Origin: Elusimicrobiota bacterium
GTDB taxonomy: Bacteria > Elusimicrobiota > Elusimicrobia > JACQPE01
DNA: 64,000 nucleotides
Direction: 5' to 3'
Assembly: GCA_016180815.1 (NCBI GenBank)
Contig: JACPAN010000013.1
Span: 54,939-118,938, forward strand
Both the position numbers and the translations under genes were made by a program. Each line of letters starts with the position of its first letter. The first letter of the stretch is position 1. Under the pieces are notes generated by a model. That model saw only the letters and a list, made by a program, of their open reading frames with translations, was not told the DNA's origin and did no database searches. Positions 39,746-49,824 of this stretch are shown piece by piece.

Positions 39746-41074
39746 CTAGTCAATGAGGTAAGGGAGAGTCTCGTAGCGGTGATGGTTATAATCCTCGCCG
39801 GCTAGAAAGCGCCATAAATACCAAATGCCGAACTGAAGGCCGATACGGTCAACGGCCCAAGCATGAGCGTATTCATGAGCCAAAAGACCGGCTACGCTTT
39901 CTCCCGCCGGAGTCAGAACGCCGCCCTCAAGAAGAGGGGATCGAAGGGTTAGATTTTCGATGCTTACCCAATTAAATCGCGACACGCCGCTTAAACCTTC
40001 CAGATCGGTAATGCCGCCGCGCCTGAGTTCGAAGTCCCTTTCAACCGGCCCAATGTCAATGCCCCCGCGCGTTAAAGCTATCTCGCGGGCGCGTTCCATC
40101 ACTTGAGGCTCAAGGCGCACTCTAGTTCCATAAAGCGCATTGACCAAAGTCCTGGCAACAACGCCATAAACCATATGCCGCAGAAAATACAGGGAATCAT
40201 AATTACCCCGCAAAACATCGGCCAAATAGCCCGCCCCGCCGTCCCAAATCGCCTCAAAAGCGACATCGGTAATCGCGTTTAAAGCCTGTTCGCTTCCAGT
40301 TCGGCCGTCGCTGAGCATGGGATTGCCGCGCTCAGGAATCAAGCTGCGGATGCCATAAACGGCGCCGTAGGAGACAACGTCGTACCGGGGATCCCGAATG
40401 GGACGCTTGGCGATCCAATCAATGGTGGCGTTGAGCGTCCAGCTAAGAAGGGCGTTGAGGCCGCCGAGGGCGACATCGCGATGGAAGGCGCCTTGATTCA
40501 AAACACTGCCCAAAACATAGCCTGTGCCAAAATTGAGTCCAAGGTCGCTATACCATGGTTCCGGTGTTCTAATGATGCCGGCTTGCTCCAATAAGGCGCC
40601 TGTCAATGCCGCAGTGACCCCCATGATCGCAGCGTTGTAATAGCCCGATGCCGGATAATCCTGCTGGAGCCGGGCGACTTGCGCAGGATCACTGACCAAG
40701 GAAGATGGCAAGGTCGTAGCGCCGCCGCCGGCTAAGGTGACCATAAATCCGTCGGGCGTGATGGAAATACCCGGCCTAAACGTTGACCAAAGACTATCCC
40801 TTTCCCGGCTCTCGCGATAGGCGGAGGCCGAAGACCCAAGGGTCACAGCCAAAAAAGGCGCCACATTATTTAAAGCGAAATTGAACGCAGGGTGCGTCGG
40901 ACGGGGATTGCTCGGAGCCGGAGCAATCAAACGTGCCCCATCAAAAGTCGCGCCGGCGCGCCCCATAGTATCGTCTTGCGTGCAAACGTCTTCAGCGGCT
41001 AGCGTGCCCGAGAAGCAAAAAAAAGAGAAAACTAAAATAAACGCTTTGCCTGCGGCGCGAGCCATGACACCCAA
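39746..41074 (-). CDS. hypothetical secreted protein with C-terminal HExxH motif
   Basis: Signal-like MARAAGKAFILVFSFFCFSGTLAA; LLAHEYAHAW near C-terminus; N-terminal GRAGATFDGARL motif shared with other proteins here. Confidence 0.6.
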   Translation of the reverse strand: MGVMARAAGKAFILVFSFFCFSGTLAAEDVCTQDDTMGRAGATFDGARLIAPAPSNPRPTHPAFNFALNNVAPFLAVTLGSSASAYRESRERDSLWSTFRPGISITPDGFMVTLAGGGATTLPSSLVSDPAQVARLQQDYPASGYYNAAIMGVTAALTGALLEQAGIIRTPEPWYSDLGLNFGTGYVLGSVLNQGAFHRDVALGGLNALLSWTLNATIDWIAKRPIRDPRYDVVSYGAVYGIRSLIPERGNPMLSDGRTGSEQALNAITDVAFEAIWDGGAGYLADVLRGNYDSLYFLRHMVYGVVARTLVNALYGTRVRLEPQVMERAREIALTRGGIDIGPVERDFELRRGGITDLEGLSGVSRFNWVSIENLTLRSPLLEGGVLTPAGESVAGLLAHEYAHAWAVDRIGLQFGIWYLWRFLAGEDYNHHRYETLPYLID

Positions 41075-41179
41075 GTTTACCCGGCCGGCATCAAGATTAT
41101 CCTGAGCCTAAAGGCCCAATTGAAAATAAAACTTAAGTCTTACCAGTCAGGATTCAGACAGTAGCGGTATGCCTTGCAT

Positions 41180-41277
41180 GTCATTCCGGCGAAAGCCGGA
41201 ATCCAGATTTATATTTCTGTTTTTTAAAGACAACAAAATTGCGAAAGAGGGTCTGGATTCCCGCCTTCGCGATGACT
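41180..41277. repeat. intergenic palindromic hairpin element, inverted pair
   Basis: gtcattccggcgaaagccggaatccag ... ctggattcccgccttcgcgatgac between two minus-strand genes. Confidence 0.8.
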
Positions 41278-41309
41278 AAATCAAAAAAGGTGTCGCCGGA
41301 AAGTGTATT

Positions 41310-48560: not shown

Positions 48561-48596
48561 ATTATGAACGAAAGCTTAAAATCGGGAAGCCAGGAA

Positions 48597-49340
48597 ATGA
48601 ACAAGGCAACAACGCCGCAGCCTGCGATGCGGGGCCTGCGCATGACAACTCTCCTCATAGCGTTCGCTGCGGTGCAGATGCGGATGACGGCGCCGGCAGC
48701 GGCATACTTCGGCCCGGTCCTAAAAGAGGAATCTGAAGTTTACAATTTCAATCCAGACGATCCCCCAATGAGCGTGACTTGGTACCGCAATCCAAGCGAA
48801 GAAGTGATGAGGATTTTTGGCCGGCTCTTTGAGATTTTACCGCGATTCCACCCGTCTGTAATGCCCGTTATCTTGGAATACAAGACGGAAATAGATGTTG
48901 CTCCCGCCTATGTAGTAAAGACAAAAGAGCTTTATCTTTATGGTCTTGGCCCCGGCAGCGGCGTTATTGTCATTACCTACGAATTGCTGGAACTTGTTCG
49001 CAACGAGCATGAGTTGGCCCTCATTATTGCCCACGAACTAGCTCATGTTCAATTGGAACACGTTAAAAAAGTCACAAGCAAAAGCCGGCGGCTGTACGAG
49101 CGGGAAGCTGATATCGTTGGAGCCCTCTACATGCAGGAAGCAGGTTTTAATTGCAAGGAGGCCGAGGGAGTATTCAGACATTCTTTTGAAGTTGACTGGG
49201 CCCGCGCTACAACCCTTTTTATGCCCCCTGAAGAAGAGACCCGAGACTGGGTAGCGAGACTCCATGAGATTAGATACGAGGAGGGCAACCGTGATGCCTA
49301 TCCAGAAAGGCTCAATGTATTGCGCAAGGTTTGCAAATGA
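48597..49340 (+). CDS. secreted HExxH zincin-like protein (M48-like or DUF4157-like), paralogue A
   Basis: Signal-like N-terminus; RNEHELALIIAHELAHVQLEH followed by READIVGALYMQEAGFNCKE; roughly 50% identical over the core to 52752..53468. Confidence 0.55.
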   Translation: MNKATTPQPAMRGLRMTTLLIAFAAVQMRMTAPAAAYFGPVLKEESEVYNFNPDDPPMSVTWYRNPSEEVMRIFGRLFEILPRFHPSVMPVILEYKTEIDVAPAYVVKTKELYLYGLGPGSGVIVITYELLELVRNEHELALIIAHELAHVQLEHVKKVTSKSRRLYEREADIVGALYMQEAGFNCKEAEGVFRHSFEVDWARATTLFMPPEEETRDWVARLHEIRYEEGNRDAYPERLNVLRKVCK

Positions 49341-49371
49341 CGCGGCAAGGGAACGGTCGGTCAGCGTTGCG

Positions 49372-49824
49372 ATGATCAAAAAAGCGATTTTGTGTCTGGC
49401 CGTCCTTTTTTGCCTGAGCATGACTTTCGGGCAACAATGGGCTTTAGCTGATACCGACCACCTCTATAACGACTCGCGCCGGATTTTTGACGGCGGGCAG
49501 CAAGGAGAAGGGGGCGGTGGGACGCTCGGGTTGCCGGGGTCCATGCCGGTGGCAGCGAAAACGACGGAAACGGCCCCTACGCCGTCCCCGGGAAAAACCC
49601 CAGACAAAAAAGTCCTTAAAGCCAAAAAATCGCCGGCTCGCTTTGTTCGCGCCGCGGCAACCGCGACGTTGGTTACCGGGGTCGCCGGGTTTTTCTTGGG
49701 GGTCGCCCTAGCCGTTATGGTGGCCCTGTTCCCTTACCTCTGGATCGCCCTCGCTGGTTTTGCGTTGACTGTTTTGGGTTACAACCTCTCAAAACTCGGC
49801 AAATCCTTGGGCAAGAAAACCTAA
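49372..49824 (+). CDS. hypothetical membrane protein (signal plus C-terminal TM pair)
   Basis: Signal-like MIKKAILCLAVLFCLSMTFG; RRIFDGG motif; C-terminal hydrophobic pair. Confidence 0.5.
   Translation: MIKKAILCLAVLFCLSMTFGQQWALADTDHLYNDSRRIFDGGQQGEGGGGTLGLPGSMPVAAKTTETAPTPSPGKTPDKKVLKAKKSPARFVRAAATATLVTGVAGFFLGVALAVMVALFPYLWIALAGFALTVLGYNLSKLGKSLGKKT

Follow-up and report, generated by a model that had tools for sequence, protein, structure and literature searches.

A short Phe-Asp-Gly motif shared by exported proteins encoded around a giant gene of an uncultured Elusimicrobia bacterium

The region analysed here, called the window throughout, is a 64-kb stretch of a 180-kb contig from a metagenome-assembled genome (MAG) labelled 'Elusimicrobia bacterium' at NCBI, with locus tags HYT79_07030 to HYT79_07075 and proteins that include MBI2070342.1, MBI2070343.1 and MBI2070350.1. 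Coordinates are positions in the window unless a contig is named. The host genome is that of an uncultured groundwater member of the Elusimicrobia; window genes were also found on short Logan contigs from runs SRR12113383, SRR12113385, SRR12113425 and SRR12113431, and the analysis of the MAG covered the 64-kb window together with a few kb on such contigs. Exported proteins without known families dominate the region, together with an open reading frame (ORF) of 6071 amino acids (aa). We describe a short motif, with the core Phe/Tyr-Asp-Gly ([F/Y]DG), which follows the signal peptide in ten proteins encoded on either side of this giant ORF and which, judged from sequence, probably marks them for a shared step after export. 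The giant gene and the ten carriers are as follows.

Giant ORF: 21331..39546, plus strand; 6071 aa, multi-pass, no FDG
Carrier 1: 39746..41065, minus strand; 439-aa exported ORFan with C-terminal HEYAH (MBI2070342.1, HYT79_07030); motif DDTMGRAGATFDGARL, FDG at 40937..40945
Carrier 2: 41310..43409, minus strand; 699-aa exported ORFan (MBI2070343.1); motif LKLTGVLFDGAKPP (LFDGAKP), FDG at 43320..43328
Carrier 3, family B: 44996..45544, plus strand; 182 aa; motif HDDAARANAIFDGGHS, FDG at 45134..45142
Carrier 4, family B paralogue: 45534..46049, plus strand; 171 aa; relaxed motif MAGQARSYFDESAAS (YFDESAA), FDE at 45657..45665
Carrier 5, family A: 46668..47204, plus strand; 178-aa predicted beta-sandwich; motif AAIPIQLYDGNRW (LYDGNRW), YDG at 46776..46784
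Carrier 6, family A: 47232..47810, plus strand; 192 aa (MBI2070350.1); motif AHDAGRAGARFDGSRI, FDG at 47340..47348
Carrier 7, family A: 47828..48430, plus strand; 200 aa, or 190 aa as called at NCBI; motif FGELEIFDGARWK (IFDGARW), FDG at 47966..47974
Carrier 8: 49372..49824, plus strand; 150 aa from the start compatible with a signal peptide; motif DTDHLYNDSRRIFDGGQQ (SRRIFDGGQQ), FDG at 49486..49494
Carrier 9: 16358..17002, plus strand; exported ORFan of 214 aa, encoded upstream of the giant gene; motif WADSSKTFDGNAPR (TFDGNAP), FDG at 16493..16501
Carrier 10: 15764..16336, plus strand; tandem neighbour of carrier 9; relaxed motif DTDPLKTYEATTKVMDGKAPK (VMDGKAP), MDG at 15932..15940

These ten instances, seven with strict FDG and three relaxed (YDG, FDE and MDG), are spread over at least five families. 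The invariant core, [F/Y]-D-G, is preceded by I, L, T, R or V and followed by A, G, S or N and often by a basic residue (AHDAGRAGARFDGSRIV is an example of the 17-mer around the motif). In all ten carriers a Sec/signal peptidase I (SPase-I) signal peptide can be read directly, with a positively charged n-region, a hydrophobic h-region of 10–15 residues and small residues at −3 and −1 forming AxA-like sites. With hand-curated cleavage sites, the aromatic residue falls at offset 10–26 of the mature chain, mostly at 12–16; in carrier 2 the motif lies 10 residues past the signal-peptide site. The segments before the motif usually start with acidic residues (DTD, DDG, EDV, ..HD). Carrier 3 runs from signal peptide to motif, then a P/A/S/D-rich linker and C-terminal membrane segments, and in carrier 8, for which an alternative 169-aa call starts at 49315, the motif is likewise followed by a linker, here G/P/T-rich, and by C-terminal membrane segments.

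The original prediction had reported four instances, GRAGATFDGARL (39746..41065), AARANAIFDGGHS (44996..45544), GRAGARFDGSRI (47232..47810) and SRRIFDGGQQ (49372..49824). All four are present in frame behind signal peptides, as it had stated. These signal peptides are of the n-h-c type and have AxA-like sites, which place the Phe 16, 26, 13 and 12 residues, respectively, into the mature chain. Six more had been missed (those of 41310, 47828, 46668, 45534, 16358 and 15764). The long consensus offered for the motif, (H/D)DxxGRAGAxFDG, describes carriers 1 and 6 and, loosely, carrier 3, but fits no other carrier; elsewhere only [FY]DG is shared.

Further genes that bear on the motif are:

M19 membrane dipeptidase, ambiguous instance: 20104..21195, plus strand; LPLFFDGRP 18 residues past the signal peptide, FDG at 20206..20214
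Degenerate family-A-like relative: 2211..2831, plus strand; 206 aa, exported; AHSSGRSGAA kept, TSA in the place of FDG; leader AHSSGRSGAATSA
M48-like HExxH metallopeptidase, secreted: 48498..49340, plus strand; PF01435, 1.1e-10; signal peptide, no motif

The FDG of the M19 dipeptidase follows the DLHLH metal-binding strand and could be no more than an element of the enzyme fold; alignments of this protein to Protein Data Bank (PDB) entries stop short of its N-terminal FDG, so the instance stays ambiguous. The relative at 2211..2831 has the C-terminal ..FPITNIVLRR typical of family A; it overlaps the next gene at its long-ORF start.

The position of the motif is highly non-random. In an unbiased scan, in which every tripeptide was compared between the first 80 residues and the remainder of all window ORFs, FDG was the most enriched (8 versus 1, with 0.49 expected; Fisher 5e-6). 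Counted by family, five independent families against 0.06 expected gives a P of about 6e-9, or ∼5e-5 after multiplication by 8000 tripeptides. As controls we used 78 loci (1252 ORFs) of other phyla, fetched by a scan with PurH. In these the frequency of FDG per 1000 aa is 0.13 in the heads and 0.23 in the tails of the proteins, compared with 1.91 and 0.06 in the window. Under the same automatic rule, FDG at mature positions +8 to +28 occurs in 0/332 control signal-peptide-like ORFs and in 5/32 of those in the window; for the wider pattern [FYM]D[GE] the figures are 3/332 and 8/32. The original prediction had asked whether the motif also appears in cytoplasmic proteins, and FDG is absent both from the cytoplasmic enzymes of the window and from the 6071-aa giant protein. 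A chance origin of the FDG tag is excluded.

The carriers are also clustered. All lie within ∼10 kb of the ends of the giant gene, upstream at 15764–17002 and downstream at 39746–49824. Strict FDG is found in 7/15 of the signal-peptide proteins flanking the giant gene, as against 0/16 elsewhere in the window (Fisher 2.4e-3), and with the M19 dipeptidase added, along with the three relaxed instances, the comparison becomes 11/15 against 0/16 (Fisher 1.6e-5). To score the surroundings of the core separately, a weight matrix was built with the core masked and one family left out at a time. The flanks of carriers 6, 3 and 1, which belong to three different groups, outrank all 309 control [FY]D[GE] windows, and the remaining instances fall in the top 6–30%. 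The extended motif is therefore real for a subset of the carriers, and the core for all of them.

At the level of DNA the copies have little in common. They are only ∼70% identical over 35 nucleotides, and the codons for GRAGA in carrier 1 (GGG CGC GCC GGC GCG) and carrier 6 (GGC CGG GCT GGG GCA) differ at all five third positions. The degenerate octamer TTYGAYGG occurs 25 times in the window where shuffled sequences give an expectation of 14; in-frame FDG copies, of which eight are N-terminal, account for the surplus, whereas those out of frame or antisense number 16, in line with the 14 expected from shuffling. The divergence of the DNA, together with this in-frame surplus, indicates that the signal is one at the protein level and not a product of recent recombination. 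On the same two grounds, the idea of a DNA repeat or promoter was ruled out.

How closely the carriers are related matters for any interpretation. Carriers 5, 6 and 7 (family A) are paralogues (BLAST E=3e-9 for 47828 to 46668) with a common C-terminal ..GR..GKIV.PA.RL, and carriers 3 and 4 (family B) are paralogues too (BLAST E=1e-5). Carrier 8 has the architecture of family B, yet BLAST shows no homology, and carriers 9 and 10, which lie in tandem, resemble each other in their leaders. When these groups are compared with the 439-aa and 699-aa proteins, BLAST aligns nothing but the 13-residue motif. Profile–profile comparison between families with hhalign recovers 7–14 motif columns and, in one case, a 55-column leader, with probabilities <4%. 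Both methods therefore leave at least five groups without detectable kinship beyond the leader. The original description of the carriers as unrelated holds for these groups but not within the two sets of paralogues, and the shared homologous domain that would have accounted for the motif was found nowhere outside these two small sets. Both checks named by the original prediction thus speak for it.

None of the carriers gave a significant match in Pfam, NCBIfam, PHROG or PDB. Searches of 5.8 billion proteins, made with the family A profile and with carriers 1 and 2, returned nothing outside the same MAG except one truncated orthologue of carrier 1; carrier 2 matched only itself, and so did the family B profile when run against 1.84 billion representatives. 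To judge from these searches, all carriers are ORFans restricted to one lineage. That lineage is very sparsely sampled: by PurH, two uncultured Elusimicrobia, with identities of 77% and 70%, come nearest among 185,579 GTDB species (the window MAG itself not being among the representatives scanned); the next matches, at ∼51%, belong to other phyla. A metagenome scan with a degenerate DNA pattern for GRAGAxFDG gave, among the matches listed (80 loci), only off-frame or chance occurrences and none after a signal peptide; these matches come from GC-rich DNA, and a single conserved gene, read in an alternative frame, accounts for many of them. A literature search found no relevant report of an FDG motif or of an Elusimicrobia sorting signal, and the FDG tag appears to be undescribed so far.

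The only orthologue is 44% identical to the 439-aa protein and lies on a Logan contig (L008) which begins with a Nextera adapter and continues in frame with ..FDGSRTKIPKNF... Adapter sequence occupies positions 1..19 and 2687..2705 of this contig (AGATGTGTATAAGAGACAG / CTGTCTCTTATACACATCT) and yields a false stop and false terminal residues in the gene calls. In the alignment F-D-G-x-R is kept, and the next ∼45 residues are proline-rich and poorly conserved, with a 7-residue indel. Though a single data point, the retention of FDGxR is what purifying selection on the motif predicts.

What follows the motif differs between the families. In family B, the 439-aa and 699-aa proteins and carriers 9 and 10, the 40 residues past the motif are 45–65% P/G/S/A/T or highly charged, with a hydrophobic content of 7–28%. 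In family A, the motif forms the predicted turn of the first beta-hairpin, between strands 32–37 and 42–52 in carrier 5, with a predicted local distance difference test score (pLDDT) of about 82. The model shows that the motif can, in prediction at least, adopt a hairpin turn.

Our favoured, though tentative, reading is that [F/Y]DG is a short linear motif under selection, placed early in the mature chain of a specific Sec-exported set that this Elusimicrobia lineage encodes around the giant gene; we would put this somewhat short of an even chance. The broader claim, that it is a functional tag of some kind shared after export, seems to us modestly favoured over its negation. As to how such a tag would work, non-cleaved docking comes out as the most likely sub-mechanism, ahead of propeptide processing, although it is itself only a possibility that we hold loosely. 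As read from the sequences, an SPase-I signal peptide carries the protein across the inner membrane, leaving a new N-terminus made of a short segment, usually acidic at its start, which ends in x-x-Phi-Asp-Gly-[A/G/S/N]-[R/K/H]; in four of the five families a linker of low hydrophobicity, P/G/S/A/T-rich or charged, then parts this tip from the rest. We infer that the tip may fold as a short strand with an Asp-Gly turn and that a common envelope partner could bind it, for example by strand addition, such that different passengers would be tethered or delivered to the same place via their flexible linkers. Docking of this kind would suit membrane-anchored, soluble and large carriers alike, as well as the hairpin predicted for family A.

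Several known N-terminal signals resemble the motif in part. In Bacteroidota, the lipoprotein export signal (LES) requires a lipidated Cys+1 and lies at +2 to +5, with the consensus K-(D/E)2 or Q-A-(D/E)2 (PMC5080379). The likeness is that of a very short, lineage-restricted, early-mature motif on unrelated exported proteins, which in the LES decides their fate after translocation. The FDG carriers, however, are of the SPase-I type and have no lipobox, their motif lies at +10 to +26 and its core is Phi-Asp-Gly rather than acidic; no canonical lipobox Cys (consensus [LVI][ASTVI][GAS]C) is present at the predicted site of any carrier, so that neither a lipoprotein nor an LES assignment applies. 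The N22 segment of CsgA, also located behind the signal peptide, is recognised for CsgG-dependent export (PMC7217966, PMC6957492). It too is an N-terminal mature segment, and a CsgG-family gene lies near the window end, but N22 is G/N/Q-rich, has no FDG and is confined to curli subunits, whereas the FDG carriers include membrane-anchored and folded proteins. Neither curli repeats nor similarity to N22 were found in the carriers, which do not qualify as CsgG substrates of the CsgA type.

The TonB box and the TolA-binding N-terminus of TolB are short strand-forming peptides near the mature N-terminus, bound in trans by a periplasmic domain. Strand addition is the very mechanism that we favour for the FDG tip; on the other hand, the consensus there is different (D/E-T-x-V-V-T-A, for instance), the proteins bearing it are TonB-dependent barrels or TolB, and no TonB- or TolA-type partner was identified here. 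The H-X9-DG domain (TIGR04294 / DUF1559) is a C-terminal domain of prepilin-like proteins with an N-terminal GFxxxE, known from bacteria of the Planctomycetes–Verrucomicrobia–Chlamydiae group and from Elusimicrobia. Carriers 6 (HDAGRAGARFDG) and 8 (HLYNDSRRIFDG) fit H-x9-DG literally, with a Phe immediately ahead of the Asp-Gly, but the His is missing from most carriers and a prepilin signal from all; we rejected this identity, as there is neither a prepilin motif nor a match in NCBIfam or Pfam (E<=0.1 for full proteins, E<=10 for 36-aa motif peptides). A twin-arginine translocation (Tat) signal, which has S/T-R-R-x-F-L-K in the n-region ahead of the h-region, was likewise rejected for SRRIFDG of carrier 8; this string lies past the h-region and cleavage site and has no NCBIfam TAT match. 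On sequence, position and carriers, which differ from those of LES, N22 and the TonB box or TolB, the FDG motif is assigned to no known family.

A number of points weigh against a functional tag. The core is only three residues long, and three of the instances are relaxed variants. The motif is known from one genome and one orthologue, and 0/16 signal-peptide-like ORFs in 2 × 21 kb of the two nearest genomes carry it; these 21-kb loci contain mostly housekeeping genes, and the nearest resemblance in them is 'VKIFDQSPRAR' after a lipobox (L009 16617..17114). Signal peptides and SPase-I sites were called with a home-made rule and hand curation rather than SignalP, and the hairpin was predicted from a three-sequence alignment with a mean pLDDT of 62. 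Function is argued from sequence and prediction, and the partner of the tag is hypothetical. Finally, the carriers are clustered and partly paralogous, so that much of the pattern could stem from an inherited leader.

This last point leads to the main rival, which is also the main non-functional one: that the motif is a relic of a common leader. Local duplication and shuffling of 5′ segments would have spread a module of signal peptide plus first hairpin around the giant gene, and [FY]DG would persist because Asp-Gly is a favoured beta-turn, that is, in a structural role without recognition in trans. We consider both parts of this account unlikely, but deserving of serious attention. It would explain why the carriers occur as tandem arrays and only within ∼10 kb of the giant gene on both sides, why families A and B are paralogue groups, why hhalign aligns the whole 55-column leader of family B with that of the 439-aa family (E=0.014), and why the family A motif sits at a hairpin turn within the predicted fold; moreover, the distant family-A-like paralogue at 2211..2831, located well away from the cluster, lacks FDG and is still an intact ORF. 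However, what comes after the motif in four families is probably a disordered linker rather than a fold, so that a purely structural turn would have nothing to stabilise. The remainder of the leader has diverged to noise whilst FDG is invariant, and the L008 orthologue keeps FDGxR amid a diverged linker.

Next comes cleavage at the motif. An acidic pro-piece of 10–26 residues would be cut at or next to FDG by an envelope protease, for which the M48-like enzyme, the only candidate processing enzyme in the cluster, would be the natural choice. The spacing from the signal-peptidase site varies (10–26), as expected of a cleavage site and not of a ruler, the segments before the motif are acidic, the M48-like HExxH peptidase has a signal peptide and is encoded among the carriers, and carrier 1 itself has HEYAH. 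In family A, however, such a cut would take off the first strand of the predicted beta-sandwich, and we know of no M48 specificity that matches F-D-G. We regard processing as distinctly unlikely.

The original prediction had left open whether the motif serves sorting, propeptide removal or secretion. A selected motif would fit a tag of this sort, but no dedicated secretion system was found in the motif cluster, and the secreted M48-like peptidase is the only enzyme there that would fit. A GNA1162-like lipoprotein gene lies at the window end (63436..63960); just past it, on contig L210 (2551..3998), a gene for a 308-aa CsgG-family lipoprotein is followed by an LPP20-like gene, and together these may form an outer-membrane channel operon. 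The motif might act like CsgA N22 and guide unfolded periplasmic proteins to the CsgG-family channel or another pore, given that the tag, like N22 (PMC7217966), stands between signal peptide and disordered linker. Against this, the CsgG-family gene belongs to a separate lipoprotein operon ∼14 kb from the motif cluster, C-terminal membrane segments are present in the family B carriers, family A carriers are predicted folded beta-sandwiches, and sequence similarity to N22 is lacking; we think it very improbable. Least credible by far is the suggestion, prompted by a core of just three residues and a −35-like TTGAC within TTTGACGG, that chance or a nucleotide element (promoter-like TTGAC or a repeat) happens to read FDG: it is effectively refuted already by the enrichment (P about 5e-5 corrected for all tripeptides), by controls at 0/332, by a TTYGAYGG surplus limited to in-frame N-terminal copies and by YDG, MDG and FDE variants at the same position.

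The giant protein has ∼20 hydrophobic segments, mostly paired. Residues about 3530–4020 form a strong PPDK_N plus PEP-utilizers module; there are also 'FSPDG' propeller-like stretches and a region that weakly resembles a ResIII helicase. PPDK_N domains are listed among the domains of giant Omnitrophota proteins (bioRxiv 10.1101/2023.11.21.568195). We considered the giant protein as a periplasmic receptor but do not count this as evidence, since the paired hydrophobic segments and the ATP-dependent domains (ResIII-like, PPDK_N) leave its topology, and with it the location of the propeller-like regions, ambiguous. That the Phi-Asp-Gly tip is a new N-terminal sorting or docking signal, one that defines the clients of the giant multi-pass envelope protein or of a dedicated M48-type processing peptidase in this deep-branching lineage, is a reading to which we give little weight. 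It would amount to a novel sorting code acting after Sec, in a diderm phylum with no known sorting signals.

Other features of the region were noted in passing. The giant ORF contains several in-frame peptides typical of translated repeats like repetitive extragenic palindromes (..IASPKARNDEK.., ..LDSRFRGNDDG.., ..IPAQAGIQ..). Palindromic intergenic repeats at 41180..41271 and 44001..44028 (GTCATTCCGGCGAAAGCCGGAATCCAGA / TCTGGATTCCCGC.TTCGCGGGAAT) flank the region of the 699-aa gene, and it is this class of sequence that appears translated within the giant ORF. The gap that separates the 699-aa gene from the family B/A cluster contains a putative ORF for a 130-aa, lysine-rich, coiled-coil-like protein (43574..43966, plus strand) with an internal 27-nucleotide tandem duplication (43760..43809; GCTACTAAA.AA.AACTTAAGGC); it is opposed by an antisense ORF of similar length, and the coding status of either is uncertain. 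An 1827-aa exported ORFan at 9171..14654 (plus strand), which matches nothing in Pfam, begins with a repetitive and extremely acidic stretch (RQSQYPE..DDGDDGDG). The motif cluster is followed immediately downstream, at 49895..51100 (plus strand), by a toxin–antitoxin pair made up of an AbiEi-like (helix-turn-helix/DUF6922) gene and an AbiEii nucleotidyltransferase gene, which hints that the cluster lies in a variable or island-like region.

Thus, the original observation is confirmed and extended, and its interpretation as a tag is plausible but unproven. Short tags such as the lipobox, LES, PEP-CTERM, the C-terminal domain of the type IX secretion system and CsgA N22 have repeatedly led to new envelope machineries, and almost nothing is known of protein sorting in Elusimicrobia or of the roles of giant bacterial genes. 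Should the motif prove to be merely a leader relic, the finding would be of local interest and would show a secretome island growing by reuse of leaders. If it is a tag, it would group some ten dark-matter proteins functionally, tie them to the 6071-aa gene and offer a practical handle for experiments.

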